Assembly: GCA_964291625.2 (NCBI GenBank)
Contig: OZ220090.1
Location: 64,001-128,000, forward strand
Reading direction: 5' to 3'
DNA length: 64,000 bases
DNA from: Candidatus Latescibacterota bacterium
GTDB taxonomy: Bacteria; Latescibacterota; UBA2968; UBA8231
Numbering within the stretch: the first letter of the stretch is position 1; every line of letters starts with the position of its first letter. A program made the translations under genes and the position numbers. Below the pieces are notes generated by a model. The model was given only the letters and a program-made list of their open reading frames with translations. It ran no database searches and was not told where the DNA came from. This document shows positions 13,146 through 31,141 of the stretch, one piece after another.

Positions 13146-13175
13146 GATGTACTCTGATCCTTATATGTGCTCCCC

Positions 13176-16100
13176 ATGAGTCTACCCGAGAGACCCCCGA
13201 AACCGGGCGACCTGGTCCTCGTCCGCTCGCGCCGCTGGTTGGTCGAGGATGTGGTAACCAACGGGGCCGCATCCCCTCTCGTTCGCCTCGCCTGCGCTGA
13301 CGACGACGCCCAGGGCCAGGAGCTGGAGGTCTACTGGGACTACGAGATCGACCGCCTGATCCTCGAGGAGGAGGGCTGGGCCGACCTCGCGTCGAAGGGG
13401 TTCGACACGCCGCGGCACTTCGCCGCCTTCCTCCACACCCTGCGCTGGAACTGCGTCACGGCGACCGACCCGAACCTGTTCCAGTCTCCCTTCCGCGCCG
13501 GCATCAAGATCGACGCCTACCAGATGGAGCCCCTGCGCAAGGCCCTGCGCCTGCCCCGGGTGAACCTGTTCATCGCCGACGACACCGGGCTCGGGAAGAC
13601 GATCGAGGCCGGCCTGATCGCCCGGGAGCTGCTGTTGCGGAAGAAGGCGAAGACCATCGTGGTCTCGGCTCCCCCTTCGGTGCTCGAGCAGTGGAGGGGG
13701 GAGTTGGAGGAGCGCTTCGGACTGGTCTTTGAGGTCCTCGACCGGCGCTACCTGGCCCGGATTCGCCGCGAGCGGGGATTCGGCGTGAATCCGTGGCGGA
13801 CCCACAGTCGCTTCCTGGTCTCCCACAACCTGCTGGTCGATCCCACCTACGCCGACCCGATGCGGGAATGGCTGGGGGGGTTGCTGCCAGGGAGCCTGCT
13901 GATCCTCGACGAGGCCCACCACGCGGCACCTTCCAGCGGGGGCCGCTACGGCATCGAGACCAAGTTCACGCGCGCCGTCCGGGATCTATGCGCCCGCTTC
14001 GAACACCGGCTGTTCCTCTCTGCCACGCCCCACAACGGCCACTCCAACAGCTTCTCCACCCTGCTGGAGCTACTCGACCCCTACCGGTTCACACGGGGGG
14101 TGAAGATCCGCGGCAAGGGCGAGCTCGAAGAGGTGATGGTACGCCGCCTCAAGGAGGACATCCGCGAGATCCAAGGGGGCTTCCCCAGGCGGAGTGTCGA
14201 GAGGGTGGAGATCGACGACCTGCCGCCCGACGCCCCCGAGATCCTGCTCTCGGAGCTCCTCGATCAGTACCGCACCGTCCGGGAGGAGCGGCACGCGACG
14301 ACCTCGCAGAGGGCCCGGGCCGCAGCCGGGCTGCTCGTCGTCGGGTTGCAGCAACGGCTGCTCTCCTCCATCGAAGCATTTGCCCGAACCCTCAAGGTGC
14401 ATCGGCGCACCGTGCTGAAGCAGTGGGAACGAGAGCAGGAAGCCGCTGCCGAGATCCCGGAATCCGAAGATCAGGACAGCCTGCTGCGGACAGCCCCGGA
14501 CTCCGATGACGAGCGGGGCGAGTGGGAAGAGGATCAGCTCGAAGCCGAAGAGGAAGCCGAGGTCGAGGCGATGACGGTCGCGGCCGAAGAAGGAAGCGCG
14601 CGAGACGAGAGCACCGAGGTGTTGTGGCGCGGGGAGCAGGAACTCCTGGACCGCATGGAGAAGATCGCCGAGCAGTCGCGGTACCTGCCGGACGCCAAGG
14701 TGCGGCGGCTGATCGATTGGATTCGGGAGAGCCTCTGTCCCGGACTGCCTGCCCTTGGCGAGCGGGCGCAGGGTGAGCCGGCCTATTGGAACAATCGCCG
14801 GGTGCTGATCTTCACCGAGAACCGGGAGGGGACGAAGCGCTATCTGCGGACCATTCTGGAGGAAGCGATCGCAGGAACAGACCTGGCGGACGAGCGCATC
14901 GAGGTGATTGACGGCCTGGTCAGCTCGAAGAATCGGCGGGAGATCCAGAAGCGCTTCAACACCGATCCGGCCAAGGACCCGCTCCGCATTCTACTGGCGA
15001 CGGATGCTGCGCGAGAGGGTCTGAACTTCCAGGCCCACTGTACCGACCTGTTCCACTTTGACCTGCCTTGGAACCCGGGCCGGATCGAACAGCGGAACGG
15101 CCGCATCGACCGCAAGCTGCAGCCCGCCCCTGAGGTCCGGTGCCACTACTTCGTCCTGCCTCAGCGGGCCGAGGACCGCGTTCTGCAAGTCCTGGTCAAC
15201 AAGACCGAGAGGATCAAGCGGGAGTTGGGCAGCCTATCGAAGGTCATCGACGACGATGTCGAACGGCTCCTTCGAGGCGGCATCCGCCACGCGACCGCCG
15301 CCCAACTCGCCGAGGAGATCGAGAATGCCGATCTGGACGAGGAGCGGAAACGGGTTGCGGAAGAGGAGTTGGAGGGCGCCCGCGAGCGCCAGGAAGACCT
15401 GAAGGAGCAGATCGAGCGCTGCCAGTCACTGCTCCAGAACTCACGAGAATCGGTCCGCTTCGAAGAGGGTGCCTTCCGGGATGCGCTTTCCTGCTCGCTT
15501 GAGCTGCTGGGGACGGATCACCTGGAGGAGACTCGCGATCAGGAGGGGCGACAGGTCTGGAGATTCCCTGCTCTCGACCAGAGAGCGGAGACCGACGCCA
15601 GTTGGTCGGCCACGCTCGATACCTTGCGACAGCCAAGGAAGCCGGATCAGAAGGTGACCGAGTGGCGCCGGCAGGCGCCGATCCGTCCGGTCGTCTTCAA
15701 GGACCCCGGCGTTGTTACCGAGGACAGCGTGCACCTGCACCTGGAGCAGCGCGTGGCACAGCGGCTGCTGGCCCGGTTCCGGGCCCAGGGCTTCATCTAC
15801 CACGACTTGACGCGGGCCTGCCTGGCGCAAGCCCGGGACTCGGTACCGCGCGTGATCCTCCTCGGACGGCTCTCGCTGTACGGGCGAAATGCCGAACGCC
15901 TGCACGAGGAGCTGGTTCCGGTAGCAGCAAGATGGGTCGACGCCTCAGGGCGAAGAGGACCGCTCCGGGCGTACGCCCGGGAGACCGAGTTGCGCACGCT
16001 CGACCTGCTCGAAGAGGCCCTCACAGGTGACAGCGTGCGGGTGCCGAACAGGGCGATTCAGGACCGGCTTCTCGCAACTGCGGCGGAGGATATCGAGGAA

Positions 16101-16454
16101 CTGCTGCCCCAACTGGAACCGCGGGCCGAGGAGCTGGCCGGCATCGCCGTCGAGCGTCTGGCCGAGCGCGGAGCCCGCGAGGAGAAGGATCTGCGGGCGA
16201 CGCTGGAGCGCCAGCGTGACCGCGTGGTCGAGGAGTTAAACAGGTACGATCGCGGCTACGAGCAGATGACCCTGAACTTCAACCCCGAGGAGCGGCGGCA
16301 GGTCGAGGAGAACATGCGAGGGTGGCGCCTGCGTCTCGAACAGTTCGACCAGGACCTCGAAGCCGAACCCGCCCGCGTGCGCGAGTTCTACGAGGTGCGG
16401 GCCAGACGCGTCGAGCCGGTCGGCCTCGTCTACCTGTGGCCGGAGACCAACTGA
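13176..16454 (+). CDS. drmD: DISARM SNF2-like helicase DrmD
   Basis: IADDTGLGKT, DEAHH, LSATPHNG, TDAAREGLNFQ, EQRNGRIDR, C-terminal EPVGLVYLWP; first gene of the class I DISARM order. Confidence 0.92.
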   Translation: MSLPERPPKPGDLVLVRSRRWLVEDVVTNGAASPLVRLACADDDAQGQELEVYWDYEIDRLILEEEGWADLASKGFDTPRHFAAFLHTLRWNCVTATDPNLFQSPFRAGIKIDAYQMEPLRKALRLPRVNLFIADDTGLGKTIEAGLIARELLLRKKAKTIVVSAPPSVLEQWRGELEERFGLVFEVLDRRYLARIRRERGFGVNPWRTHSRFLVSHNLLVDPTYADPMREWLGGLLPGSLLILDEAHHAAPSSGGRYGIETKFTRAVRDLCARFEHRLFLSATPHNGHSNSFSTLLELLDPYRFTRGVKIRGKGELEEVMVRRLKEDIREIQGGFPRRSVERVEIDDLPPDAPEILLSELLDQYRTVREERHATTSQRARAAAGLLVVGLQQRLLSSIEAFARTLKVHRRTVLKQWEREQEAAAEIPESEDQDSLLRTAPDSDDERGEWEEDQLEAEEEAEVEAMTVAAEEGSARDESTEVLWRGEQELLDRMEKIAEQSRYLPDAKVRRLIDWIRESLCPGLPALGERAQGEPAYWNNRRVLIFTENREGTKRYLRTILEEAIAGTDLADERIEVIDGLVSSKNRREIQKRFNTDPAKDPLRILLATDAAREGLNFQAHCTDLFHFDLPWNPGRIEQRNGRIDRKLQPAPEVRCHYFVLPQRAEDRVLQVLVNKTERIKRELGSLSKVIDDDVERLLRGGIRHATAAQLAEEIENADLDEERKRVAEEELEGARERQEDLKEQIERCQSLLQNSRESVRFEEGAFRDALSCSLELLGTDHLEETRDQEGRQVWRFPALDQRAETDASWSATLDTLRQPRKPDQKVTEWRRQAPIRPVVFKDPGVVTEDSVHLHLEQRVAQRLLARFRAQGFIYHDLTRACLAQARDSVPRVILLGRLSLYGRNAERLHEELVPVAARWVDASGRRGPLRAYARETELRTLDLLEEALTGDSVRVPNRAIQDRLLATAAEDIEELLPQLEPRAEELAGIAVERLAERGAREEKDLRATLERQRDRVVEELNRYDRGYEQMTLNFNPEERRQVEENMRGWRLRLEQFDQDLEAEPARVREFYEVRARRVEPVGLVYLWPETN

Positions 16455-16456
16455 GC

Positions 16457-19400
16457 ATGGCCAAGGTGGACCCTCACGTTCTCAGGCACCTGGAATGGAT
16501 CGGCTTCGTCCAGCCGAGCGGCCTCGTCGTCTCCGCCCCCGCGCTGGTGCGCGCCGGCGCCATCCTCGACCGGCAGGACGCCGAAGGGCAGCGGCTGCTG
16601 CGCGATTGCGTCGAGGAGAGGGTTTTCCGCCCCGACAGCGAGCCGGAACCCTGGTTGCCGGACTTCGAGACCTTCGCCAGGACCGTCCTCGGATGGAACT
16701 TCTCGCCCAAGGGCTACGCTGGCGGCGAAGATCACCCCATCCCTGACGAGCTGAGGGTAACCGCCACGGACGGAGAAACCCTCGCCCCCGACTTCGCCGT
16801 CCTCGAACGGAACCCGGAGAAAGGGGAGTCCCGCTGGCAGCTCCTGGTCCAGGCCTTGGAACCGGGACAGGACTTCGACAAGGAGGTCAAAGGCTCCGGC
16901 TCCCTCGAAGCCTCCCCCCACAGCCGGATGGAGCGGCTTCTCCGGCGTGCCGAGGTGAAGGCCGGTCTGCTGTTCAACGGCCTGGCCATCCGGCTGATCT
17001 CGGCGCCCCGGGGCGAGAGCTCCGGCTGGATGGACTTCCGCGTGAAGGAGATGGCGCAGACCTCCGGCCGGCCGATATGCGCCGCCATGCGGCTCTTGTT
17101 GGGGCAGGGCCGCCTGTTGTCGCTGCCCACCCCGAAGCGGCTGGCGGCCCTGCTCACCGACAGCCGCAGGTTCCAGAACGAAGTCAGCGAGAGGCTCGCC
17201 GAGCAGGTACTGCACGCCCTTTACGAGATGCTGCGCGGACTCCAGGCGGCCCACGACGCCTCCAAGGGCGAGCTGCTGCGGCAGACCCTCGCGGAGAATC
17301 CCGACCGCGTCTACCACTCCCTGCTCACCGTGATCCTGCGGCTCGTCTTCCTGCTCTACGCCGAAGAGCGGGACATGCTCCCGAAGAACGAGACCTTCCA
17401 GCGCTACTACTCCCTCGTGGGACTCTACGAGCGCCTCCGGGAGGACGCCGCCCTGTACCCCGACACTATGGACCAGCGCTACGGGGCCTGGGCCCAGCTG
17501 CTGGTGCTGTTCCGCCTGATCCACGACGGCGCCAGGACCGGGGAGATGAGCCTGCCCAGGCGCCACGGCGTCCTCTTCGACCCGGACCGGTTCCCCTTCC
17601 TCGAAGGCCGCCCGGAGGTGGTGGCCCGCCAGATCCACGAGCGCATCGATCCGCCCCTGGTGCCCGACGGCACCATCTACCGCGCCCTGGAGAAGCTGCT
17701 GGTCCTCGACGGCGAGCGGTTATCCTACCGGGCCCTCGACGTGGAGCAGATCGGCTCGGTCTACGAGACCATGATGGGGTTCCGCCTGGAGACCGCGAGC
17801 GGAAGGTCGGTGGCGATCAAGGCGGCCAAGAAGCAGGGCGCGCCCACGGCCGTGGACCTGGACGCCCTGGCGGAGGAACCGGGGGCCCGGCGCGACACAT
17901 GGCTCCGGGACAGCATCGGCCGGAGACTCGGCGACAGAATCAGGAGGGAGGTGAAGGAAGCCGGGAGCGTGGAGGATCTGCACGCGGCCCTCATGCCGGT
18001 GATCGAGGCCGAGGCCACCCCCGACTTGGTACCGCAGGGAGCGATGTGCTTGCAGCCCAGCGAAGAGCGCCGCCGCTCCGGCTCGCACTACACCCCGCGC
18101 GAGCTGACGGAGCCGATCGTGCGCACGACCCTGGAGCCGATCCTGGCGCGGCTTCAGGGAGAGGACGGGAGGCCCCCGAGTCCTGAACAGATCCTCGACC
18201 TCAAGGTCTGCGACCCAGCCATGGGTTCGGGTGCCTTTCTGGTGGAGGCGTGCCGCCAACTCGGCGACGCCTTGGTGGAGGCTTGGCGCGCCCACGGGGA
18301 GGTGCCGGAGATCCCGGCCGACGAGGACGAGGGGATCTTCGCCCGCCGGCTGATCGCCCAGCGCTGCCTGTACGGAGTGGACCGGAACCCGATGGCGGTC
18401 GACCTCGCCAAGGTTTCGCTATGGCTGGCCACTCTCGCCAAGGACCACCCGCTGACATTCATCGACCACGCCCTGCGGCATGGGGACTCGCTGGTCGGGC
18501 TGTCGCAGCGCCAGATCGAGGACTTCCACTGGGAACCCGGCGCCGGCGAGGCCCGATGGGGGTTCGAGAGCACGGCGGTACAGGAGCACGTGAAGAAGGT
18601 GGCCGGGCTGCGGCAGCGGATCCGCGAGGCGGGGGAGGAGACCGCCGACTGGGAGCTGCGAGACCTGTGGGACGAGGCCCGGCACGAGTTGGGCGAGGTG
18701 CGGCTCTTCGGCGATTTGGTGACGGCCGCCTTCTTCGAGGGGGCCAAGTCGAAGCAGCGGCAGGCGAAGCTCCACGAGTACGACCAAGTGGTTTACGTAG
18801 GCAAGGCCGGGCAGTACCGGGATCGGCTGCAGGAGCAACGCCGCGCCGATCCGCCGCTGGCTCCCTTCCATTGGGAGGTAGAGTTCCCGGAGGTCTTCCA
18901 CCAGGAGAATCCGGGGTTCGACGCCATCGTGGGAAACCCGCCGTTCGCTGGCAAGAACACCGTGGCCAAGGCCAACGTTCCCCGCTATCTGGATTGGTTG
19001 AAGCAGGTCCACGAGGGAAGCCACGGCAACGCCGACCTCGTGGCCCACTTCTTCCGCCGGGCCTTCGATCACGCACGCAAGGACGGTACCTTCGGCCTGA
19101 TCGCCACCAACACCATCGCCCAGGGGGATACGCGCTCCACCGGGCTGCGCTGGATCTGCGAGAACGGTGGGGAGATCTACCAGGCGCGCAGGCGGGTCAA
19201 GTGGCCTGGGCTTGCCGCGGTGGTGGTGAGTGTGCTCCACGTTCACAGGGGGCCGTTCAGTGGAGCAAAACGACTCGATGACGAGGTGACGGATACGATC
19301 ACGGCCTTTCTCTTCAACGGCGGCGGCCACGAAGACCCTGAGCGCCTCAAGGCCAACACGGGCAAGAGTTATGTCGGCAGCTACGTTCTCGGGATGGGGT

Positions 19401-20479
19401 TCACCTTCGACGACACCAACAAGAACGGAGTCGCCTCATCGCTGGCCGAGATGCACCGACTCATCGAGCGAGATCCTCGGAATCAGGAGGTGATCTTCCC
19501 TTATATCGGAGGCGAGGAGGTGAACACCAGCCCGATCCATGCCCATCACCGCTACGTCATCAACTTCCGCCACTATCCCTTGCGCCGGGATGACCTGGGC
19601 AAACGATGGGCGACCGCGGACAAAAACCAGTGCCGAGAATGGCTGCGGCAGGGAATCGTGCCTCTCGACTATCCGTCACCGGTGGCGGAGGATTGGTCGG
19701 AGTTGCTGGCGATTGTTGAGGAGAGGGTAAAGCCAGATCGCGCCAAGCTCACGAAGAACGCCATTGGACGACAACGTGCCGCATTCTGGTGGCGGTACGG
19801 CTCGACAGCAAAGGAACTCTACGCTGCTGCCACAGACTTGAAGCGGGTTCTGGCGATCTCACGGGTCGGTCAGCAAGCGGCCTTCGCATTCCTGCCCACA
19901 GATACGGTCTACGCGGAGACAACCATTGTCTTCCCCCTCGACACCTACGCCGTCTTCTGTGCCCTCCAGGCCCGTCCTCACGAGATCTGGGCACGCTTCT
20001 TCGGGTCATCGATGAAGGATGACCTCCGCTACACCCCCTCCGACTGCTTCGAGACCTTCCCCTTCCCCCGCCGCTGGAGAACCCACCCAGCCCTCGAAGC
20101 CGCCGGCCAAGCCTACTACGACTTCCGCGCCAGCCTCATGGTCCGCAACGACGAAGGCCTGACCAAGACCTACAACCGCTTCCACGACCCTGACGAAGAC
20201 GACCCCGACATCGCCAAACTCCGCGAGCTGCACGCCGCAATGGACCGGGTCGTACTCGATGCGTATGGTTGGAAGGAGATCCCCACCCACTGCGAGTTCC
20301 TCCTCGACTACGAGATCGACGACGAAGAGGGGACCAAACGCAAGAAACCCTACCGCTACCGCTGGCCCGACGACACCCGGGACGACGTCCTTGCCCGCCT
20401 CCTCGAGCTGAACGCCCAGCGCCCCAAGCGGGAGAGCGGCACCAAACCGGCCTACTGGGACGATGAAACCGATGAGTAG
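16457..20479 (+). CDS. drmMI: DISARM N6-adenine DNA methyltransferase DrmMI (Eco57I/type IIG-like)
   Basis: GSHYTP, DPAMGSGAFL (SAM binding), GNPPF (catalytic), RYTPSDCFETFPFP; starts 2 nt after the drmD stop. Confidence 0.9.
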   Translation: MAKVDPHVLRHLEWIGFVQPSGLVVSAPALVRAGAILDRQDAEGQRLLRDCVEERVFRPDSEPEPWLPDFETFARTVLGWNFSPKGYAGGEDHPIPDELRVTATDGETLAPDFAVLERNPEKGESRWQLLVQALEPGQDFDKEVKGSGSLEASPHSRMERLLRRAEVKAGLLFNGLAIRLISAPRGESSGWMDFRVKEMAQTSGRPICAAMRLLLGQGRLLSLPTPKRLAALLTDSRRFQNEVSERLAEQVLHALYEMLRGLQAAHDASKGELLRQTLAENPDRVYHSLLTVILRLVFLLYAEERDMLPKNETFQRYYSLVGLYERLREDAALYPDTMDQRYGAWAQLLVLFRLIHDGARTGEMSLPRRHGVLFDPDRFPFLEGRPEVVARQIHERIDPPLVPDGTIYRALEKLLVLDGERLSYRALDVEQIGSVYETMMGFRLETASGRSVAIKAAKKQGAPTAVDLDALAEEPGARRDTWLRDSIGRRLGDRIRREVKEAGSVEDLHAALMPVIEAEATPDLVPQGAMCLQPSEERRRSGSHYTPRELTEPIVRTTLEPILARLQGEDGRPPSPEQILDLKVCDPAMGSGAFLVEACRQLGDALVEAWRAHGEVPEIPADEDEGIFARRLIAQRCLYGVDRNPMAVDLAKVSLWLATLAKDHPLTFIDHALRHGDSLVGLSQRQIEDFHWEPGAGEARWGFESTAVQEHVKKVAGLRQRIREAGEETADWELRDLWDEARHELGEVRLFGDLVTAAFFEGAKSKQRQAKLHEYDQVVYVGKAGQYRDRLQEQRRADPPLAPFHWEVEFPEVFHQENPGFDAIVGNPPFAGKNTVAKANVPRYLDWLKQVHEGSHGNADLVAHFFRRAFDHARKDGTFGLIATNTIAQGDTRSTGLRWICENGGEIYQARRRVKWPGLAAVVVSVLHVHRGPFSGAKRLDDEVTDTITAFLFNGGGHEDPERLKANTGKSYVGSYVLGMGFTFDDTNKNGVASSLAEMHRLIERDPRNQEVIFPYIGGEEVNTSPIHAHHRYVINFRHYPLRRDDLGKRWATADKNQCREWLRQGIVPLDYPSPVAEDWSELLAIVEERVKPDRAKLTKNAIGRQRAAFWWRYGSTAKELYAAATDLKRVLAISRVGQQAAFAFLPTDTVYAETTIVFPLDTYAVFCALQARPHEIWARFFGSSMKDDLRYTPSDCFETFPFPRRWRTHPALEAAGQAYYDFRASLMVRNDEGLTKTYNRFHDPDEDDPDIAKLRELHAAMDRVVLDAYGWKEIPTHCEFLLDYEIDDEEGTKRKKPYRYRWPDDTRDDVLARLLELNAQRPKRESGTKPAYWDDETDE

Positions 20480-20717
20480 GCCTCTGGGGAATCCCCCGGC
20501 CAAGAGGGCTAACTGGCCTTGCACCTTCTCGCGGAGGTCTGCGCCTCGCTGGGGTAGGCCGCGGCGATGGCCTCGCGGACTCCGGCCGCCGTGCTGGCCA
20601 CATGGCTTGGCTCTTGTCGGTCGGAGGAGTAGCGGGACACCGGCGAGGCTCAAGGGTTGCAGAGAGGTAGAATATGCCGACGGGGTGAGTGCAACCCACC
20701 CGGCGACACATCGCATG

Positions 20718-20884
20718 GACAGCGGCACTGAGGCATTCTGGGATTGATCTTCGTTGCGCATACGCAACGAGCGGAACACAATGGGTAGCTTTACGCGGCC
20801 GGGTTCTCCGGCAGGTCCCTTTCGTTCCCGGCGTTCTGCGTGGAGCGAAGGGCAGAATCCACAGAAGCCTCAGATGTCGCTGTC
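20718..20884 (+). ncRNA. Retron msr-msd ncRNA
   Basis: Terminal imperfect inverted repeats GACAGCGGCACTGAGGCATTCTGGGATT (20718-20745) / AATCCACAGAAGCCTCAGATGTCGCTGTC (20856-20884). Unpaired G20746 follows the 5' arm. Hairpins TCGTTGCG-cata-CGCAACGA (20751-20770), GCCGG-gttct-CCGGC (20798-20812) and an imperfect stem at 20817-20852. Ends 20 nt before the RT start. Confidence 0.8.
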
Positions 20885-20904
20885 TCGGAGTATGGAGTGG
20901 GCAT

Positions 20905-22569
20905 ATGACGAGGAACCTCAGGCGTCCAGATCCAGAGTTGCTTGAGTGCTTCTCCCGATTGGTGACGGCCCGGGATGTAGCAAGACTACTGGAAGTCAGC
21001 TATCCTGATCTGACATGGCATCTCTACAGACGTGGCATGTCAACGAATTACAGGTCCTTCGAGATCCAGAAGCGAGCGGGTGGGAGCAGGCGCATTGCAG
21101 CGCCCATCAGTCCTCTGAAGATCCTTCAGGCAAAGCTGGCGCATGTGCTTCAACTGGTCTATAGGGTGCGGAGGCCCGTACATGGGTTTGCTTTGGGAAG
21201 GAGCATCGTCTCGAATGCGAAGCATCATGTAGGAAAGTCATTCGTCCTGAACGTTGACCTGGAGCGCTTTTTCCCATCGATAAACTTCGGGCGCGTTCGA
21301 GGAATGCTCATGGCTACTCCGTACAATGTCCCCGAGAGAGCAGCGACGGTTCTCGCCCATATGTGCTGCTTCGAGAACGAGTTGCCCCAGGGTGCCCCGA
21401 CTTCACCAGTGGTCTCGAATATGGTTTGCGGAAAGTTGGACAGTGAATTGCATCGCCTCGCACGACGCAACAGGTGTGTGTATACCCGCTATGCAGACGA
21501 CCTGTCGTTCTCTCCGTGGAATCCCTCCGTGAGTCGGTTTCCCTCGGCACTGGCAAAGATTGACTTCATTGACAATAGGATGGATGTCCAACTTGGTGAT
21601 GGGTTGAAGGGTGTGATAGAAGATGCGGGGTTCAGAATCAATCTCAGTAAGGTGAGACTGATGCGGGGATCCAAGTCACAGATTGTGACGGGTCTACAAG
21701 TCAACTCACACGTAAACGTTCGCCAGCGTTGGCTTCGTGATTTGCGGGGTTTGCTTCATGCGTGGGAGAAGTATGGACTGCGGCGCGCTGAGGAGGTCTT
21801 CCACAGGAAGTACTGGCGGAAGCGGGCCAATGTGCGGAGCGGAGACAATGGTGGCCCCCCTTTGGACTACGTGGTTGCAGGCAAACTCGCCTTTCTTCGT
21901 CAGGTCCGAGGTCATAGGGATCCGCGATACCGCTGGCTGTGCAATTGGTACGATCGCCTTCGGGGGGAGAAGGAACGCTTCCGGTTCGTACCATGTCGCG
22001 AATCCGCCGATGCGGTGTGGGTGGTGGAGACAGAGGACAGGAAAGTTTGTCGCAACCGGCAAGGGACTGCTTTTCTGGTTGAGGATGTTGGTTTCGTGAC
22101 ATGCAATCACGTTGTAAAGGACGTGGAACGGATCTGGCTTTTCAGACCTGATAGTGAGAATAGTCGATTTGAGGCCGTGGTGGATAGGAGCGACTCTCAC
22201 CGCGACATTGCCTTGCTGTCTGCTGCTGGAGTGCCCCCGAGCGCATCACTATCGTTGGGTGATAGAAGTAGCGGCCAGGTTGGTGACCTGGTACAGATAC
22301 CCGGCTATCCGGATTATGCTCCTGGCGCTCAGCTGTCATCTCTGGAGGCAAGAGTCACCGAGGTGAGGGTTGAACTTTGCGTGGAGAAGATCCGGTTCGA
22401 GACAGCGATCCTGGCTGGGAGATCGGGAGCACCCGTGGTCGATGCCACTGGGGTCGTGATCGGGATTGCTGAGCGAGGGGCACCGGACGTCGACCAGGGC
22501 CAGGAGACAACGCGTCATAATGCAATCCATGTTCGCGAGCTGTTGGCCATGATTGCTGAGGGGGTTTAG
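20905..22569 (+). CDS. Retron reverse transcriptase fused to C-terminal trypsin-like serine protease (type XI-like retron)
   Basis: RT motifs KRAGGSRRIAAP, NAKHH (NAxxH), VDLERFFPSI, LPQGAPTSP, YTRYADD, QIVTG. Protease triad TCNHVV / RDIALL / GRSGAP. GGAG RBS before ATG 20905. Confidence 0.92.
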   Translation: MTRNLRRPDPELLECFSRLVTARDVARLLEVSYPDLTWHLYRRGMSTNYRSFEIQKRAGGSRRIAAPISPLKILQAKLAHVLQLVYRVRRPVHGFALGRSIVSNAKHHVGKSFVLNVDLERFFPSINFGRVRGMLMATPYNVPERAATVLAHMCCFENELPQGAPTSPVVSNMVCGKLDSELHRLARRNRCVYTRYADDLSFSPWNPSVSRFPSALAKIDFIDNRMDVQLGDGLKGVIEDAGFRINLSKVRLMRGSKSQIVTGLQVNSHVNVRQRWLRDLRGLLHAWEKYGLRRAEEVFHRKYWRKRANVRSGDNGGPPLDYVVAGKLAFLRQVRGHRDPRYRWLCNWYDRLRGEKERFRFVPCRESADAVWVVETEDRKVCRNRQGTAFLVEDVGFVTCNHVVKDVERIWLFRPDSENSRFEAVVDRSDSHRDIALLSAAGVPPSASLSLGDRSSGQVGDLVQIPGYPDYAPGAQLSSLEARVTEVRVELCVEKIRFETAILAGRSGAPVVDATGVVIGIAERGAPDVDQGQETTRHNAIHVRELLAMIAEGV

Positions 22570-22837
22570 GAAGACCCGAAGGTGAGACTGGGGGTGTGCA
22601 ATTGGGCCTGAGTGTAGAGCTCTATGTGGGGAATCCTGGCAGAGCCTTTTCGGGACGGGATTAGGTGCGGGCATAGAGTGGAGGCCGATTGCTGATGTCT
22701 CCGTTTGGTTGCCCTCCTGAGGAGTGGCTCCCCGAGCCCGGCCTTCTGGTGTCGACTCTGTGGACCCTGATTCTGTGACGGAGGGTTGACCCCCATTGGT
22801 AGGGCACTGGATGGGATGACTGCATGAAGAAGGTGAG

Positions 22838-23365
22838 ATGGTAGAGTACACGACAGGCAGTGTCCTTGAGGAGGAAGTGGAAGCCCTCGTCAACATCGTC
22901 AACTGCGTCGGCGTCATGGGCAGGGGGATCGCCCTTCAATTCAGACAGGCTTGGCCTGAGAACTTCAAGGCATATCAAGCCGCCTGCTGCAAGAAGGAAG
23001 TTCGGCCCGGGCGCATGTTCGTGTTCGACACGGGACAGTTCGTCTCCCCGCGCTATATCATCAACTTCCCGACCAAGCGACACTGGCGAGACAGGTCTAG
23101 AATCGAAGACATCGACGCGGGTCTGGAAGCGCTGGTTGCCGAAGTCCGGGCTCGGGGGATCGGCTCGATCGCTGTCCCTGCCTTGGGCGCCGGGCTCGGC
23201 GGACTCGAATGGGCAGATGTCCGGTGGCGGATCGATCGGGCAATGGATGCCCTTCCGGACGTAAGAGCGGTGGTCTTCGAGCCGCATGAGGCTGCTGAGG
23301 TCGTCGGTGGTCAGCAAGGGCCGAAGGTGCCAGGAGTGGCGGTGGGCGAGAGCAAGGATGGGTGA
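22838..23365 (+). CDS. DarG-type macrodomain (ADP-ribose glycohydrolase), macro domain only
   Basis: ALVNIVNCVGVMGRGIALQF, YIINFPTKRHW and SIAVPALGAGLGGLEW closely follow the DarG macrodomain; no DarG C-terminal domain. Confidence 0.85.
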   Translation: MVEYTTGSVLEEEVEALVNIVNCVGVMGRGIALQFRQAWPENFKAYQAACCKKEVRPGRMFVFDTGQFVSPRYIINFPTKRHWRDRSRIEDIDAGLEALVAEVRARGIGSIAVPALGAGLGGLEWADVRWRIDRAMDALPDVRAVVFEPHEAAEVVGGQQGPKVPGVAVGESKDG

Positions 23366-23368
23366 GAG

Positions 23369-24613
23369 ATGGCTGATCAAGACAGATGTGCAAGATCACC
23401 AGCGGAAGCCGACCCGAGAATCATCAGGCGGGTCGCCCTGCGAAATTACAGGAGCATCGCCGCCTGCAATGTCCAACTGACGCCGCTGACCATCCTGGTA
23501 GGCGCCAACGGAGCGGGCAAGAGCAACTTCCTCGACGCGCTACGCTTCACCGCCCAGGCCCTGCGGTTCTCCCTGGACCACGCTCTGCGCGAGAGAGGGG
23601 GGATCAACGAGGTCCGACGGCGGTCCCGCGGTCATCCGAATCACTTTGCCATACACCTTGATCTCCGGCTTCCGGAGACCACGGGCTGGTATGCCTTCGA
23701 AGTGGGCGCCCAGTCGAAGGGACGCTTTGTCGTAAGGCGGGAAGAGTGCATGGCCAAAGGGAGCGACAGCAACCGGTCAGAGTTCTTCAAGACAGAGAAC
23801 GGGCAGCCGGTCAGCACCTCCATGAGCCATCCGCCGGGGGCGGGAGATGACCGTCTCTACCTGATGCAGGTAGCCGGTTACCCGGCCTTCCGCCCGTTCT
23901 ACGAGGCCTTGGCGGGAATGGGCTTCTATAGCATCCACCCGGAACAGATCCGGGAACTTCAGTCGCCGGATCCGGGGGAGCTTCTCAGGCAGGACGGCAG
24001 CAATGTCGCCAGCGTACTGGCGAATTTGAAGGCGGGGGCCCCGGAAAGTGCGGAGCGGGTTTCCAAGTATCTGTCAAAGGTGGTTCCAGGCACCGTAGGC
24101 GTCGAGTCGAAGACGGTGGGCCCCAAGGTAACCGTGGAGTTTCGACAGCAGGTTGCAGGCGACCACAGTCCCTGGCGTTTCCTCGCCAACAACGTCTCCG
24201 ACGGTACGTTGAGGGTTTTCGGCGTGCTCATGGCCCTCTACCAGGTCGCTGGCATGGATTCGGGCAAGGCGAAGCTGATCGGGATCGAGGAGCCGGAGGG
24301 CTGTCTTCATCCAGCGGCAGGCGCGGTGCTCACCGACGTGCTGCGTGAGGCGAGCGACAAGACGCAGGTGATCGTCACCAGCCACAGTGCCGATCTGCTG
24401 GACCGGGATACGATCCCGTTGGAGTCCATCCTGGCGGTGGTCCATGAGCATGGAGAGACGCGGCTTGGTCCCCTCGACGAAGCAGGGCGGTCGGCCCTCC
24501 GAGAGCATCTGTTCACCGCCGGGGAGTTGCTTCGCATGGATCAGTTGACACCCGATCCGGCGCTCTCAAGGCCAACTCAGTTGAGCATGTTCGGCCGAGG
24601 CCGCGACATGTGA
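23369..24613 (+). CDS. AAA_15/AAA_21 ABC-type ATPase (OLD/AriA/PtuA-like)
   Basis: LRNYRSI, Walker A GANGAGKSN, VSDGT signature, Walker B IEEPE, H-loop TSHS. Confidence 0.88.
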   Translation: MADQDRCARSPAEADPRIIRRVALRNYRSIAACNVQLTPLTILVGANGAGKSNFLDALRFTAQALRFSLDHALRERGGINEVRRRSRGHPNHFAIHLDLRLPETTGWYAFEVGAQSKGRFVVRREECMAKGSDSNRSEFFKTENGQPVSTSMSHPPGAGDDRLYLMQVAGYPAFRPFYEALAGMGFYSIHPEQIRELQSPDPGELLRQDGSNVASVLANLKAGAPESAERVSKYLSKVVPGTVGVESKTVGPKVTVEFRQQVAGDHSPWRFLANNVSDGTLRVFGVLMALYQVAGMDSGKAKLIGIEEPEGCLHPAAGAVLTDVLREASDKTQVIVTSHSADLLDRDTIPLESILAVVHEHGETRLGPLDEAGRSALREHLFTAGELLRMDQLTPDPALSRPTQLSMFGRGRDM

Positions 24614-24614
24614 C

Positions 24615-25178
24615 ATGGCGAGAATCATCTCTATCGTTGAAGGGCACGCTGAGGTCGAGGCCGTCCCGGTCCTGATTCGAAGGATCAGCACGGCGATCTC
24701 CCCCTTGGACCCTCCGGAAGTTCTGAAACCAATCCGCGCGCCTCGCCAGCGAGTCCTCAAGGAGGGCCACCTGGAACGCTACCTGAGCCTGGCAGCGGAT
24801 CGCGTAGAGGAAGATGGCCGCATCCTGATTCTACTGGACGCGCACGAGGATTGCCCGGCGGAACTGGGTCCGAGCATTCTTCAGCGGGCCCAGGAGGCCA
24901 GACCGGACCGGAACATCCAGACCGTGCTGGCAAAGCACGAGTATGAGGCGTGGTTTGTCGCGGTGCTTGAGTCGATTGCAGGTACGCCGGACGTTCCGTC
25001 CCCGCAAGATCCAGAGTCGATTCAGGGAGCCAAGGAGTGGCTTCGGCGAACGTGTCCCCCGTACAGTCCGACAGCAGATCAAGCGTCGCTGACCGCGAGG
25101 TTCGACATGGAGTTGGCGCGCCAACGCTCACCCTCATTCGACAAGATGTGGCGCGCGGTGGTCGCGTTACTGCAATGA
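24615..25178 (+). CDS. DUF4276 TOPRIM-like protein
   Basis: IVEGHAE, LLDAHEDCP, EYEAWF, RSPSF; starts 1 nt after the ATPase stop. Confidence 0.78.
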   Translation: MARIISIVEGHAEVEAVPVLIRRISTAISPLDPPEVLKPIRAPRQRVLKEGHLERYLSLAADRVEEDGRILILLDAHEDCPAELGPSILQRAQEARPDRNIQTVLAKHEYEAWFVAVLESIAGTPDVPSPQDPESIQGAKEWLRRTCPPYSPTADQASLTARFDMELARQRSPSFDKMWRAVVALLQ

Positions 25179-25201
25179 GTCAGGATGACAGGGGAGGTCG
25201 C

Positions 25202-25480
25202 ATGAGCAGGAGATGGCCAGTCCAAGACGCCAAGATGCGATTCAGCGAACTCCTAGATGCAACTCTTGCCGAGGGGCCCCAGATCGTCACCAAGCGAGGT
25301 GTCGAGACCGCTGTGCTCCTTCCCATTGAGCAGTGGCGCAGGATGGAGCGCATGACCAGACCCAACCTGAAGGAACTCCTTCTTGTATCCGGAGCGCGCA
25401 CCGACAACCTCACTCCACCGCGCCAGCAGCGCCGCCGTCGGAACAGTGAGGATACGTCCTCGGTCGAAGTGGCGGAGTGA
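25202..25480 (+). CDS. Phd/YefM antitoxin (orphan)
   Basis: WPVQDAKMRFSELL...GPQIVTKRGVETAVLL; GGAGG RBS; no toxin ORF follows. Confidence 0.85.
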   Translation: MSRRWPVQDAKMRFSELLDATLAEGPQIVTKRGVETAVLLPIEQWRRMERMTRPNLKELLLVSGARTDNLTPPRQQRRRRNSEDTSSVEVAE

Positions 25481-25499
25481 GGCCCACTTTGGTGAATCC

Positions 25500-28400
25500 G
25501 TGACGGACAACCCCCAGAAGCGAAAGCCCGCCACCTCCGTCGAAGTGCGGGAGCGCCTGATCGAGGCACTCAATCTCGACTTGGTAGGTCCTTGGGTCGG
25601 CCACCCTCTGGCCGACGAGCGTCTGCCCGGGTGGATCCGGCCCTCGAACTGGTACCTGACCGGTTTCCTGATTCCCTCGGGGACCGCAGCCGGGCAGAGC
25701 GCCGACGCGGACGAGGAGGACGGCATGGATGTGGAAGTCCCGGAATCGGTGGGCCTTGCGGAGGAGTCCAATGAGGAGAGGAAGGCCGCCAAGAAAGGCT
25801 ACTTCCCCTCCTCCATGGGCCTGAGCTTCCTCGTGCCGAAGGAGGAAGATGCACTCGATGTCACCGTCTCTTGGGGCGACTACGAGCCGGAGGAGATCAA
25901 GGACGACGACAGGACCGTGTCGGTCTGGCAGCGCACCCCTCGTCTGGTTCGAATCCCCCTCGAACTCACCAGAGCCGACGACCCCGTTGTCAGAGAAGTC
26001 CCGGACTCCGGCGGACTCCGGCTCCATGTCGTCGAGCGCAAGGTCATCGCCCGGGACCTCGATGACCACATCCCCTCCGGTACGCGGTCGGTCTCGGTCT
26101 TCCTGGTCAACAACCGGCCCCCGGCGGATACCAGTGCCGACTGTGCCTATGTCTTTCAGCCGGAGCTGCGGGTACGCGGGGGACACCCCTTTGTCCCGCG
26201 TCCGGATCTGCGGGGAACCCGCGCCGATCAGTGGGACGACCAAGTCGCCGACCTCCACTACGCGGACACGCCCTCGTACGCTACCGGCCACGGCGTATCG
26301 GCCGATTGGGAGATTCTCGACGGCGACTGCCGACTGCTGCGGACGGCGTGGATCCCCCGTGCCGAGGTGGAGAAGACGGTCACCGCCGAGGTGCCGGGGG
26401 TCGAGCTGGCGATGGAGGCTCTCGGCTCCCTGCCCGACGGAACGGCCGCCGGGGTGGCCCTCGGGCCGCTCGTCGAGCAGTACCGCGGGTGGGTTCAGGC
26501 CCGGCTGCAGCATATAGAGGATCTGGAGGGCACGCGCCGGGACACAGCCGCGGAGCTGCTGCGGCTGGCTGGCCACGCGGCCGGGCGGATCGAGCGGGGC
26601 ATTGAGGTCCTGGCAGTAGACGAAGACGCTCTGGATGCCTTCCGGGTGGCCAACCGGGCGGTGGCCCGGGCCCTGCGCCAGCGCCTGGACATCGAGGAGC
26701 CGCGCTGGCGGCCTTTTCAGCTCGCCTTCATCCTGCTGAATCTCCCTGGGCTGGTGGACCCGGGCGACGGGGACCGCGAGATCGTGGACCTGCTGTTCTT
26801 CCCCACCGGTGGCGGCAAGACCGAGGCCTATCTCGGCCTTGCGGCCCTTGCCATGGTGCTGCGGAGACTTCGCCATCCGGAGGCCGGCGGGCGGTCCGGC
26901 GCCGGCGTAAGCGTGGTCATGCGCTACACCCTGCGCCTCCTGACGCTCGATCAACTCTCGCGGGCCTCGGGGCTGGTCTGTGCATTGGAGCTGGAACGCG
27001 CCGGGGCGGAAGGCCACTACGGGGAGTGGCCCTTCGAGATCGGGCTGTGGGTAGGGAAGGCGGCGACACCCAACCTTCTGGGGAAGAAAGGTGATGGGCG
27101 ATCGGATTCGGCGCGCACCAAGGTGACGCAGTACAAAGCAGACCCAAGAGGAAAGCCGTCTCCGGTCCCGCTGGAGAACTGCCCCTGGTGCGGCGAGCCC
27201 TTCGCACCGGAGTCGTTCGAGCTGCTGCCCGACCATGACCAGCCGCGCGAGCTGCGGATCGTGTGCATGAACTTCGAGTGTGACTTCAGCGGTGACCGTC
27301 CGTTGCCGATCCTGGCCGTGGACGAGCCGATCTACCGGCGGCTGCCGGCCTTCCTGATCGCCACGGTGGACAAGTTCGCGTCGCTGCCCTGGATGGGACC
27401 CTCCGGCGCCCTGCTGGGCGGGGCCGACCGGTATGACGGAAGCGGCTTCTACGGGGCCGTGGACACGGAGAGGGGAACCCGGCTCCCGGTCCCGCTGAGC
27501 CCCCCCGACCTGGTGATCCAGGACGAGTTGCACCTGATCTCCGGGCCCCTGGGAACGATGGCCGGACTCTACGAGGCGGCGATCGAAGCCCTGTGCGTAC
27601 ACGGCACCGGCGGGGAGGCTGTGCGTCCGAAGATCGTCGCATCCACGGCCACCGTCAGGCAAGCCAAGGACCAGATCCAGGCCCTCTTCGGCCGCTCGCT
27701 GACCCAGGTCTTCCCTGCCCCCGGTCCCGGCCGGCGCGACTCCTTCTTCGCCCGCACCGAATCGACCTCCAAGGTGCCCGGCCGGACCTACGTGGGCATC
27801 GCGGCCCAGGGGCGGAACCCCAAGGTGGTCATGCGCAGGGCCTGGCTGGCGCTCATGGGCGCAGCCCAGAAGGCATATGTCGAGGCGGGCGGCCGGCGCA
27901 ACGAGGAGAATCCGGCCGACCCGTACATGACCGTCCTGGGCTACTTCAACAGTCTCAAGGAGCTGGGCGGCGCCCGGCGCATTCTCGAAGAGGAGATCCG
28001 GAACACCATCAAGGGCTACGGCGCCCGCAAGCGGATCGGCGAGACGGCCGGGCTGTTCCGGGACCGCAGGAGTTTCTCCGAGGTGTTGGAGCTGACCTCG
28101 CGCGTCTCCACGGACAAGGTGGCCGAGGCCCGCCGCCGCCTGGAGTGCGGCTTCCACGAGAAGGACCGCGTCGACTGCGCCATCGCCACCAACATGATCT
28201 CCGTGGGACTGGACATCCCCCGCCTCGGCCTGATGGTTGTACTGGGGCAGCCCCTTCGCCACGACGAGTACATCCAGGCCACCAGCCGGATCGGCCGAGA
28301 CGACGACCGTCCGGGCTTGGTGGTGAGTCTGCTCAACATCCACAAGCCCCGGGACCGCTCTCACTACGAACGCTTCCGCCACTACCACGAGACATTCTAC

Positions 28401-28880
28401 CGCTCCGTCGAGGTCGGCAGCGTCACCCCATTCTCGGCGCGCGCCCTGGACCGGGGGTTCGCCGGAGCCCTCGTGGCCCTCGCCCGCCACGGGCGGGTGG
28501 AACTGACACCGGCCTTGGGCGTGAAGAGGATCGGCGAGTTTCGGGCGGAGTTGGAGCGCTTCCTGCTCGACGCCTTCCTCGAACGGGTGCGGCAGCAGCC
28601 GATCGAGGATGAGGAGGAGCGCGAGCAGTACCTGCGAAACGTGCAGAACCGCATCGTCGATCTGCTCGACTCGTGGACAAAGGTGATCGACGACTACCAG
28701 TCGGAAGGCGTGGATGTCCAGTATCAGCGCTACGACAACCCGAGGCTCCGGCCGCCACGGCCGCTGCTTCGCGAGATCCTGGACAAGGACTTCGAGACCG
28801 AGCACCACGCGAAGTTCCGCGCCAACCGTTCGCTGAGGGATGTCGAGCCCAACGTGAACCTCTTCCTGGCGGACCGATGA
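25500..28880 (+). CDS. drmA: DISARM helicase DrmA
   Basis: FFPTGGGKTEAY, RYTLRLLT, QDELH, ATNMISVGLDIPRLG, YIQATSRIGR, PRDRSHYE; GTG start at 25500 is inferred. Confidence 0.92.
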   Translation: MTDNPQKRKPATSVEVRERLIEALNLDLVGPWVGHPLADERLPGWIRPSNWYLTGFLIPSGTAAGQSADADEEDGMDVEVPESVGLAEESNEERKAAKKGYFPSSMGLSFLVPKEEDALDVTVSWGDYEPEEIKDDDRTVSVWQRTPRLVRIPLELTRADDPVVREVPDSGGLRLHVVERKVIARDLDDHIPSGTRSVSVFLVNNRPPADTSADCAYVFQPELRVRGGHPFVPRPDLRGTRADQWDDQVADLHYADTPSYATGHGVSADWEILDGDCRLLRTAWIPRAEVEKTVTAEVPGVELAMEALGSLPDGTAAGVALGPLVEQYRGWVQARLQHIEDLEGTRRDTAAELLRLAGHAAGRIERGIEVLAVDEDALDAFRVANRAVARALRQRLDIEEPRWRPFQLAFILLNLPGLVDPGDGDREIVDLLFFPTGGGKTEAYLGLAALAMVLRRLRHPEAGGRSGAGVSVVMRYTLRLLTLDQLSRASGLVCALELERAGAEGHYGEWPFEIGLWVGKAATPNLLGKKGDGRSDSARTKVTQYKADPRGKPSPVPLENCPWCGEPFAPESFELLPDHDQPRELRIVCMNFECDFSGDRPLPILAVDEPIYRRLPAFLIATVDKFASLPWMGPSGALLGGADRYDGSGFYGAVDTERGTRLPVPLSPPDLVIQDELHLISGPLGTMAGLYEAAIEALCVHGTGGEAVRPKIVASTATVRQAKDQIQALFGRSLTQVFPAPGPGRRDSFFARTESTSKVPGRTYVGIAAQGRNPKVVMRRAWLALMGAAQKAYVEAGGRRNEENPADPYMTVLGYFNSLKELGGARRILEEEIRNTIKGYGARKRIGETAGLFRDRRSFSEVLELTSRVSTDKVAEARRRLECGFHEKDRVDCAIATNMISVGLDIPRLGLMVVLGQPLRHDEYIQATSRIGRDDDRPGLVVSLLNIHKPRDRSHYERFRHYHETFYRSVEVGSVTPFSARALDRGFAGALVALARHGRVELTPALGVKRIGEFRAELERFLLDAFLERVRQQPIEDEEEREQYLRNVQNRIVDLLDSWTKVIDDYQSEGVDVQYQRYDNPRLRPPRPLLREILDKDFETEHHAKFRANRSLRDVEPNVNLFLADR

Positions 28881-30670: not shown

Positions 30671-30691
30671 CGGAGTCGCTGTTCCAGCTGC
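30575..30691 (+). repeat. Direct repeat copy 1 (drmB 3' end + drmC 5' start)
   Basis: Aligns by eye to 31031-31141 with 10 mismatches and one 6-nt indel. Confidence 0.9.
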
Positions 30692-30742
30692 ATTCTATAT
30701 TCTCTCGAAAGGCGTTGCCCCCCTCGATGGAGTACAACCACG

Positions 30743-30973
30743 ATGACAAAGCTCCTGGAAGAGGCGTTCAGGAGAGCTTCTGAGCTGCCCGAAGATCGAC
30801 AGGACTTCCTCGGCCGCATGTTGCTCCAGGTCGTCGGCGAGGAGGGAACCCTCTCCAGGTTGACGGACGAGCAGGTCGCTGAGGTGAGAGGGGCCCTGGC
30901 CCGGGCCGAAGCGGGGGAATTCGCCTCCGACGAAGCGGTGAAGGAACTGTCTACATCGTGGTCTACCGGGTGA
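30743..30973 (+). CDS. Small ParD-like/addiction-module antitoxin, probably with altered C-terminus
   Basis: MTKLLEEAF..ASELPEDRQD; LTDEQVAEVRGALARAEAGEFASDEAV; GGAG RBS. Confidence 0.6.
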   Translation: MTKLLEEAFRRASELPEDRQDFLGRMLLQVVGEEGTLSRLTDEQVAEVRGALARAEAGEFASDEAVKELSTSWSTG

Positions 30974-31026
30974 CGGAAGAAGATGTCCATGTCCTGGGCG
31001 TCTTCCATGGCGCTCGAGACCGGTAA
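30952..31026 (+). pseudogene. ParE/RelE toxin C-terminal remnant
   Basis: Translates YIVVYRVTEEDVHVLGVFHGARDR*, the typical ParE C-terminus; the N-terminal part and start codon are missing. Confidence 0.75.
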
Positions 31027-31030
31027 CCTC

Positions 31031-31141
31031 ACCTCCTGCGAGATGCGCAACGACTACCGCGCCCTCGTCCTGCCGGTCATGGGAGTACCGGGCACGGCCT
31101 TCTTCGGGCCGCCCGGGTGACGGAGGCCCTGTTCCGGCTGC
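31031..31141 (+). repeat. Direct repeat copy 2 (drmB-end remnant + functional drmC start)
   Basis: Second copy of 30575-30691. Confidence 0.9.

Follow-up and report, generated by a model that had tools for sequence, protein, structure and literature searches.

Type XI retrons, which combine a reverse transcriptase (RT) and a protease in a single gene, were defined by Mestre et al. in 2020 (PMC7736814), in the accessible text of which they are listed without a recognisable non-coding RNA (ncRNA) and cleavage of peptides is put forward purely as a hypothesis. A later survey (Toro 2026, PMC13712802) states, in its accessible portions, that types XI and XII lack a covariance model; these portions make no mention of the defence island system associated with restriction-modification (DISARM), and they give candidate ncRNAs only for two XI-like lineages without the protease. 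As far as their accessible text extends, Khan et al. (2024, 10.1101/2024.01.25.577267) validated ncRNAs of clade 8 type XI retrons and obtained RT-DNA for some of them, and the supplements of that work may already contain ncRNAs of the family described here. Our literature search found no experimental study of defence by type XI retrons, for which no trigger or protease substrate is known. Here we analyse a retron of this type, lying inside a DISARM operon, in a 64,000-nt stretch of DNA (the window throughout) from Candidatus Latescibacterota bacterium (assembly GCA_964291625.2, contig OZ220090.1, positions 64,001 to 128,000).

The closest solved structure to the window protein is that of retron Eco2 (Ec67; type I-C, RT-TOPRIM; PDB 9i2f, 9lm3 and 9s1f). 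According to the accessible text of PMC12916289, a trimeric RT-TOPRIM complex with the multicopy single-stranded DNA (msDNA) cages the Eco2 nuclease, the phage endonuclease DenB breaks the msDNA down, whereupon the released TOPRIM domain cleaves tRNAs. Because Eco2 is a single-protein retron of the same RT clade with its effector fused C-terminally, it provides the best mechanistic template for the window retron. Nonetheless, its effector is a TOPRIM RNase, whereas that of the window is an HtrA-like protease, the targets of which must hence be proteins; the trimer, the caging by msDNA and the trigger are Eco2 features that can be carried over to the window by analogy only. The embedding of defence genes in DISARM has also been described already (Payne et al. 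2024, 10.1101/2024.01.29.577857), and the accessible text of that study reports the same phenomenon of same-strand nesting, with families shared with the loci analysed here (HEC-01, PDC-M11, PDC-M50 and PDC-S28). HEC-01 gave no protection in the assays reported there, and the word retron does not occur in the main text. Our own search of the literature for a retron embedded in DISARM found no description of the arrangement.

With both DISARM embedding and type XI retrons already published, the locus adds no new kind of system by itself. In its single-gene architecture, profile matches, motifs and catalytic triad, the window protein is no different from other type XI retrons. As opposed to the type XI retrons listed by Mestre et al., for which the available text gives no ncRNA, the window retron has a conserved ncRNA common to its relatives, and its location in DISARM is particular to this locus. 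Relative to what is accessible of Payne et al., our analysis goes further in tracing one slot across seven loci, with breakpoints. The explanation that best accounts for the evidence presented below is that of an intact, canonical type XI retron, working as an autonomous abortive-infection module that co-resides with DISARM and is neither a part of it nor its dedicated guard, a reading to which we assign a probability of roughly 0.7.

The RT-protease and its upstream RNA

The retron protein is encoded on the forward strand by an open reading frame (ORF) spanning 20689-22569, within which an in-frame ATG at 20905 yields a product of 554 residues (20905-22569) with an N-terminus that lines up with those of its homologues. 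The predicted protein comprises an RT domain (residues ~1-295), a helical linker (~296-355) and an HtrA-like serine protease domain (~360-554), and Pfam detects RVT_1 at residues 54-265 (E 3.3e-15) and Trypsin_2 at residues 387-521 (E 1.4e-17). Both RT-Protease_XI profiles of PADLOC match it end to end (E 3.9e-162 and 5.5e-161, the better one covering positions 4-509 of 510), and by bit score RT-Protease_XI (538.7) ranks above RT-TIR_XII (394), RT-Toprim_I-C (331) and XIII (251). NAxxH, YADD and VTG are the names given to the motifs of retron RTs. In an alignment of 30 sequences, N104, A105 and H108 of the first, Y196, D198 and D199 of the second and V261 and T262 of the third are invariant, with A197 and G263 conserved in at least 90%. 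The protease triad (H402/D434/S507) is likewise invariant in this alignment and aligns to the corresponding catalytic motifs (His, Asp and Ser) in chains of HtrA2 and of DegP-like proteases, and the G-x-S-G-x-P context of S507 is also invariant or at least 90% conserved.

Structural comparison agrees with these assignments. Among solved chains, that of retron Ec67/Eco2 is the closest in sequence (E 3.9e-49), and a Foldseek search with an AlphaFold2 model of the 554-residue protein (predicted local distance difference test score 90, predicted template modelling (TM) score 0.72) returns Eco2 as the best match (E 2e-28, 32-34% identity over 336-365 columns), spanning the RT and the helices that follow it. 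The C-terminal domain retrieves DegP, DegQ, DegS and HtrA proteases, with TM scores to target of 0.72-0.77. A three-copy complex prediction for the protease domain (residues 358-554), run without controls, scored 0.00 and speaks neither for nor against assembly. Relatives exist at 88%, 81% and 71% protein identity (P0002-P0004), those at 88% (P0002) and 71% (P0003) being full-length; a search of genome contigs with the single protein and another of metagenome contigs with the four closest proteins found no related loci. By every test applied, the protein classifies as a retron RT, and by profile ranking and nearest solved chain it falls with types I-C, XI and XII, closest to the XI profiles. 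An initial annotation, made from the DNA letters and a list of ORFs, had arrived at the same motifs, the same intact triad and the same type, and its grouping of the RT with retrons is borne out.

The msr-msd-like ncRNA that we predict for this retron is 167 nt long (20718-20884, forward strand) and ends 20 nt before the RT-protease start. It is delineated by its fold, its inverted repeats, conserved motifs and a covariance model termed R1, and its putative parts are arm a1 (20718-20745), a candidate branching G (20746), the msr hairpin (20751-20770), a conserved GCTTTACGCGG (20788-20798), a small hairpin (20798-20812), an msd-like hairpin (20817-20852), a conserved AGAAT (20854-20858) and arm a2 (20856-20884). 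The imperfect repeats of about 28 nt that had been proposed to close the element resolve into outer arms of 10 nt with 90% complementarity (20718-20727 with 20875-20884) and inner arms of 18 nt with 72% (20728-20745 with 20856-20873), which together make up an imperfect 28/29-nt closing stem. The perfect 8-bp hairpin noted earlier is also present, pairing 20751-20758 with 20763-20770 around a 4-nt loop. Folded as RNA, 20718-20884 reaches -88.7 kcal/mol, against -57.7 +/- 4.3 in 200 shuffles, none of which was as good (z -7.15). Folded as DNA, the putative msd strand (minus strand, 20775-20855) cannot be told apart from shuffles (z -0.62), and an Rfam scan of 20300-23500 at E<=10, retron msr families included, gave four chance-level matches, all far under gathering scores.

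Comparison with homologous loci places this element in a wider context. Loci were fetched with the 30-sequence protein profile, and 31 of them besides the window's own (32 in total) contain an RT-protease. For each, the 285 nt preceding the RT were searched for the best long ungapped inverted repeat, which was compared with those of 40 dinucleotide-shuffled versions: at most two of these reached it in 23 of the 32 loci, and none did in 18. The 3' arms of all 23 repeats end at positions from -59 to +14 relative to the RT start, and the arm sequences vary from locus to locus. The elements upstream of RT-protease genes fall into three sequence groups. That of the window is marked by ATTG directly after a1, by a hairpin with consensus GTTGTTGATCCTGCGAC, by GCTTTA.GCGC and by AAGG.AGAAT directly before a2, so that the candidate priming G is preceded by a conserved AUU in the family consensus.

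Model R1, built from homologues as the initial annotation had proposed, was seeded from 13 loci of the window's group and run on both strands of 173 sources (1.83 Mb). At E<=0.01 it yielded 29 matches, the 13 seeds and 16 non-seed loci (31 in a smaller search), and every one of these lies on the strand of an RT and ends between -7 and +119 nt from the start of its ORF, with the end falling between -7 and +34 nt in 22 of 25 loci. On the window, R1 scores 86.5 bits (E 7e-16) over 20731-20870, its sole match in the 5.9-Mb home genome, which ranks the window ncRNA, together with those of L103 and L019, as top-scoring in the family. Three of the 15 weaker matches (E 0.01-1) are not immediately upstream of an RT, and the weak matches in L128 and L103 (at 4203) are on the opposite strand to the RT. 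A second match in L044 (7584-7700, E 0.13), some 200 nt upstream of the main ncRNA of an RT-TIR locus, may be a tandem or decayed copy.

In an alignment of 31 matches fitted to the model, 81.6% of cells pair, against 61.5 +/- 1.3% when shuffled (0 of 500 as high) and 39-57% with slid partners, and changes on both sides are seen in 21 of 22 pairs; an alignment of this kind leans towards structure. The msr hairpin does as well on a plain MAFFT alignment, with 89% paired and five of seven pairs compensatory. The comparative evidence hence points to an ncRNA closed by a1 and a2 with a conserved G after a1, for which G20746 is the putative branch point. Judged from sequence comparison, the upstream element is a member of a conserved RNA family.

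The reach of this family extends beyond proteases. Among the 23 ORFs scanned behind new R1 matches, five are RT-TIR genes (L044, L039, L031, L030 and L109), one is an RT-Schlafen gene (L017), seven are RT-only genes of 353-375 residues and ten encode RTs of 447-595 residues with an unassigned C-terminal extension, two of these running off the contig. Further R1-bearing loci among these are L008-L010, L012, L013, L098 and L113. R1 thus recognises an ncRNA upstream of protease-, TIR- and Schlafen-fused as well as unfused RTs of one clade, and this variety of fusions suggests one ncRNA-RT chassis with swapped effectors. Type XII (RT-TIR) and other clade 8 RTs fit this pattern, providing the second-best PADLOC match to the window protein and sharing the R1 ncRNA while differing in effector. 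According to the accessible text of the 2020 and 2026 surveys (PMC7736814, PMC13712802), there is no ncRNA model for the canonical protease-fused form.

The gap between drmMI and drmA

As stated in the initial annotation, the retron is nested in a DISARM operon. This is a complete class 1 DISARM, with drmD, drmMI, drmA, drmB and drmC all on the forward strand (13167-31899), and the retron lies between drmMI and drmA. It is followed in that gap by a 108-nt fragment of a DUF6575 gene, a truncated DarG and the HEC-01A/B pair, none of which the initial annotation had noted, and neither had it noted the published precedent for embedding in DISARM (Payne et al.).

Orthologues of DrmA are found at 85-86% identity in four genomes of the same family and at 72-73% in two more. 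We compared five orthologous DISARM loci (G103, G104, G105, G108 and G143, with DrmA 72-86% identical) and a sixth from another phylum (G168, the genome that also carries locus L026), the six gaps being L187, L188, L189, L190, L191 and L195. In the five orthologous loci, the cargo between drmMI and drmA spans 3.7-9 kb, has a GC content of 0.51-0.57 and is unlike from one locus to another. G103 holds PDC-M11A/B, DUF6575, an AAA_22 protein, a ThsB-like TIR protein and HEC-01; G104 adds to this set PDC-M50A, a fragment of DarG and a duplicated 5' piece of drmA; G105 has PDC-M50A with a TIR protein, Gabija, DUF6575 and a pentapeptide-repeat protein; G108 has PDC-M11A/B, a full DarT-DarG pair and PDC-M50A; and G143 has a PDC-S28 helicase. 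The gap of G168 (10.8 kb) contains SIR2-APAZ, a short prokaryotic Argonaute (pAgo) and four unassigned genes, and the gap is thus filled with cargo even across phyla. An RT-protease or retron occurs in none of the six gaps (3.7-10.8 kb). As far as sequence can tell, the gap is a generic slot and the retron one exchangeable tenant of it; it is from this variable occupancy by unrelated defence modules that the retron is read as an autonomous second layer. In G104 (L190, 6428-6775), the duplicated drmA 5' fragment, 78% identical to residues 40-155, lies upstream of HEC-01 in the cargo array and may be taken as a sign of recombination at the right edge of the slot.

The edges of the retron can be placed with some precision. 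Nucleotide homology of the window to the orthologous DISARM loci stops at 20475 and resumes at 22677-22784, 22826-23298 and 23410-25178, which implies that a module of about 2.2 kb (~20476-22676) has taken the place of cargo retained in G103 and G104. The segment had been described as less GC-rich than its flanks, and indeed GC content is 0.54-0.57 across 20800-22399, against mostly 0.64-0.71 outside: 0.60-0.715 over drmD and drmMI (13200-20399; 0.635-0.703 up to 19199) and 0.645-0.715 over drmA and drmB (25600-30799). Just inside the two breakpoints are the only two copies in the window of the 10-bp direct repeat TGGGGAATCC, at 20485-20494 near the left end of the module and at 22627-22636 near its right end (both forward strand), a pair that may represent either a duplicated target site or the scar of a recombination event; no recombinase gene lies within the module.

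Neither RT nor DrmA was found in any of nine same-genus genomes. Contigs about 90% identical to the window, from runs X4 and X6, continue from the 3' end of drmMI across 20476 into the leader, the ncRNA and the RT, so that the junction is present in at least one close relative; the cover of these contigs excludes 22388-22648, and that of runs X2 and X3 is limited to drmMI and a small part of the RT. The leader between the drmMI stop and the ncRNA (20480-20717) has no called promoter, and 20476-20720 has no counterpart in 75 other genomes of the family except for two 45-nt matches. In the X4 and X6 contigs, a GC-rich stretch of 69 nt within it (20529-20597) is replaced by 7 nt. The two 45-nt matches, at 83-84% in G147 and G102, fall in this stretch, which may be a small repeat element. 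The retron is best read as a module gained by horizontal transfer.

Autonomy, coupling to DISARM and decay

In the working that we propose for this retron, the RT would prime on the 2'-OH of G20746 and copy the msd part of the ncRNA into msDNA, starting beside the conserved AGAAU just 5' of a2. The resulting msDNA-RNA scaffold would hold the fused protease inactive, as in Eco2, until it is freed by some phage activity directed at the msDNA, be it cutting, modification or binding; the freed protease would then cleave host (or phage) proteins and infection would stop. We infer msDNA synthesis, the branching G, the caging of the protease, its trigger and its substrates by analogy with Eco2.

Several results weigh against an intact and autonomous retron. 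The position of G20746 directly 3' of the 5' arm is as first described, and the G is unpaired in the centroid structure, but in the minimum free energy structure it is paired within a weak helix. Conservation of the repeats in homologous loci, anticipated in the initial annotation, extends to the 23 loci mentioned above and leaves nine of the 32 without a convincing inverted repeat, and the window's own arms are equalled or exceeded in ungapped score by 15 of 40 shuffles. Since these arms contain a bulge, they fail an ungapped test, and the claim of an inverted repeat at the locus rests instead on the folding z-score and on the family comparison. On the plain MAFFT alignment, the a1/a2 helix is 57.4% paired and its covariation is 0.357, against 0.350 when slid by -1. 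The strong a1/a2 figures are therefore a product of the structure-fitted alignment, the MAFFT register being weak because bulges and internal loops differ among loci. R1 also misses the two other ncRNA sequence groups upstream of RT-protease genes, and a scan of the module for promoters and terminators called none, with a consensus that may not suit this phylum. A look-up of RNA runs covering 20480-22680 returned none, a blank that carries no weight as to expression. If the upstream structure were a cis-regulatory leader of the RT-protease mRNA, acting on translation or by attenuation, and not an msr-msd template, it would be expected to abut the start codon, as it does, and at many loci a2 reaches into the ribosome-binding region or into the opening codons; no Rfam family, retron msr included, matches it. 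Overlap of a2 with the RT start is, however, usual in retrons. The layout is also retron-like: a long a1/a2 stem encloses the conserved G that comes directly after a1, the msr hairpins and, 3' of these, a longer and variable one. Every test applied identifies the protein as a retron RT, and the accessible text of Khan et al. (10.1101/2024.01.25.577267) reports RT-DNA, and ncRNAs that were validated, from type XI retrons of clade 8. We consider a mere leader very improbable. We hold it to be quite unlikely that the module is a relic left inactive amid decaying cargo, no longer producing msDNA or defending the cell. The neighbouring cargo has decayed (the 108-nt DUF6575 fragment, and a DarG in which profile positions 1-152 of 329 are left, unaccompanied by DarT), indicating that the slot tolerates dead genes, and no promoter-like site was found upstream. 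On the other hand, the 554-residue frame is open and retains all residues invariant in the 30 homologues, the ncRNA is among the top-scoring members of its family, and full-length relatives exist at 88% and 71% protein identity. Moreover, the differences listed for 20700-20841 in the ~90% identical contigs (five substitutions and one insertion) sit in loops or in the apical part of the msd-like hairpin and spare the stems when read against the computed fold.

The remaining doubts concern the relation of the retron to DISARM. The initial annotation had proposed that the retron serves as a guard or backup for DISARM, and in its explicit form this would make it a nested guard like PrrC, with a protease that fires when a phage disables or evades DISARM. 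PrrC, in the type I restriction-modification (RM) system EcoprrI, is likewise an abortive-infection module nested in a restriction-type operon, and the accessible text of Payne et al. (10.1101/2024.01.29.577857) describes it as almost exclusively embedded in type I RM; type XI retrons are, by contrast, mostly found elsewhere, since 30 of the 31 other RT-protease loci have no DISARM gene in the available flanks, many of which are short. Several observations nonetheless speak for coupling. The retron lies inside the operon, on its strand and with no called terminator. In L026, a metagenome-assembled genome of another phylum, drmA-drmB-drmC is followed directly downstream of drmC by an ncRNA and a type XI RT on the same strand, 40% identical to that of the window; this RT and the window RT share a four-member clade (support 0.79), and the drmMI-retron junction recurs in the X4 and X6 contigs. 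The last of these is not independent support, because the contigs may carry the same island in close relatives. The L026 retron, in turn, is outside the operon and followed by a tyrosine integrase gene, and the other members of the clade adjoin, in L015, a gene for ribonucleotide reductase and, in L120, a type I RM system. PrrC is physically coupled to its RM partner, and nothing comparable is seen at the window retron. Given also that all six other DISARM gaps hold unrelated systems and no retron, and that the module is a low-GC replacement of 2.2 kb with sharp homology breakpoints, the proposed guard is not borne out, and we regard it as unlikely. More speculatively, the gap could be a cassette-exchange site working through short direct repeats such as TGGGGAATCC, with its modules wired to DISARM failure, the msDNA sensing anti-DISARM or anti-restriction activities and the protease cleaving a host or DISARM component; we deem this combined scheme decidedly improbable. 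The preferred reading remains that of an autonomous retron co-residing with DISARM. As a compact 2.2-kb test article of one gene and one RNA, the locus lends itself to experiment, and the seven DISARM loci with unlike cargo in one slot make the dependence of embedded modules on their host system directly testable.

Neighbouring genes and related loci

The genes of the DISARM operon all lie on the forward strand. The SNF2-type helicase gene drmD (13167-16454) matches PADLOC DrmD PDLC02621 (E=0, 1017.8 bits, profile positions 11-1036 of 1040) and Pfam SNF2-rel_dom and Helicase_C. It is followed by the N6-adenine methyltransferase gene drmMI (16322-20479; PADLOC DrmMI PDLC02643, E=0, 1305 bits; Pfam Eco57I, MmeI_Mtase and N6_Mtase), the true start of which probably lies downstream of the GTG that is listed, because profile matches do not begin until near residue 50. 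Beyond the gap are drmA (25383-28880; PADLOC DrmA PDLC02575, E 7.2e-267), with 85-86% amino acid identity to its counterparts in the four same-family genomes, drmB (28673-30670; DUF1998/MZB; PADLOC DrmB, E 2.4e-83; Pfam MZB) and the phospholipase D-type nuclease gene drmC (31117-31899; PADLOC DrmC PDLC02587, E 4.2e-79; Pfam PLDc_2).

The remaining cargo of the gap, also on the forward strand, combines decayed and complete genes. The 108-nt remnant of a DUF6575-family gene (22677-22784) matches L187 8529-8638 and L190 10526-10635 by blastn at 78-80%, and these segments lie inside ORFs with Pfam DUF6575, the gene being intact in those related DISARM loci. The truncated DarG (22838-23365, 175 residues) retains only the macro domain (Pfam Macro, E 8e-24; PADLOC DarG, E 1.3e-73) and is 82-83% identical in nucleotides to cargo of G103 and G104. 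There is no DarT among the window ORFs scanned, and the predicted domain content makes the DarG piece a remnant and not a DarTG system. HEC-01 (Hma-embedded candidate 01) is represented by both of its genes, an ABC-type ATPase followed by a DUF4276 gene, abutting at 24613/24615. HEC-01A (23369-24613; Pfam AAA_21/AAA_15; PADLOC PDLC04178, E 3.1e-155) is 78% identical in nucleotides to G103 and G104, and the TOPRIM-like HEC-01B (24615-25178) is matched by PADLOC (E 7.1e-67) and by Pfam DUF4276 (E 1.9e-12).

The neighbours of RT-protease genes elsewhere were surveyed in a PADLOC scan of 29 loci (134 flanking ORFs, E<=1e-10). These include type II RM (L103), type I RM (L120), SIR2-pAgo (L131 and L062), PDC-S01 (L015), PDC-M68B (L122), PDC-S09 (L095), a C3a212-family match (L107), an HTH_VI match (L042) and a weak SNF2 fragment (L125); the remaining loci scanned gave no flanking match, and many of the flanks are short. 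An ORF upstream of the RT in L015 was considered as a DrmC candidate and rejected (BLASTP E 11), being the C-terminus of a ribonucleotide reductase with a TSCPD domain. There may be a lineage-specific preference for restriction-type neighbours.

A FastTree phylogeny of 162 RT domains joins the window RT with that of L015 (support 0.94) and then with those of L026 and L120 to form the four-member clade discussed above. Interspersed with TIR-fused and unfused RTs, those fused to a protease occur at three or more distinct positions in the tree, a distribution that suggests repeated gain or loss of the protease fusion, with deep nodes supported at 0.04-0.3. SIR2-APAZ with a short pAgo recurs within a few kb of a type XI retron in L131 and L062, and the G168 pair in the DISARM gap is about 8 kb from its retron. 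Finally, in L116 (5938-9430), an RT-protease of 35% identity is followed, at most 57 nt later, by genes for an ATPase of the HEC-01 type and a DUF4276-like protein; of the 31 loci, this one alone repeats the window's order of RT-protease and then HEC-01.

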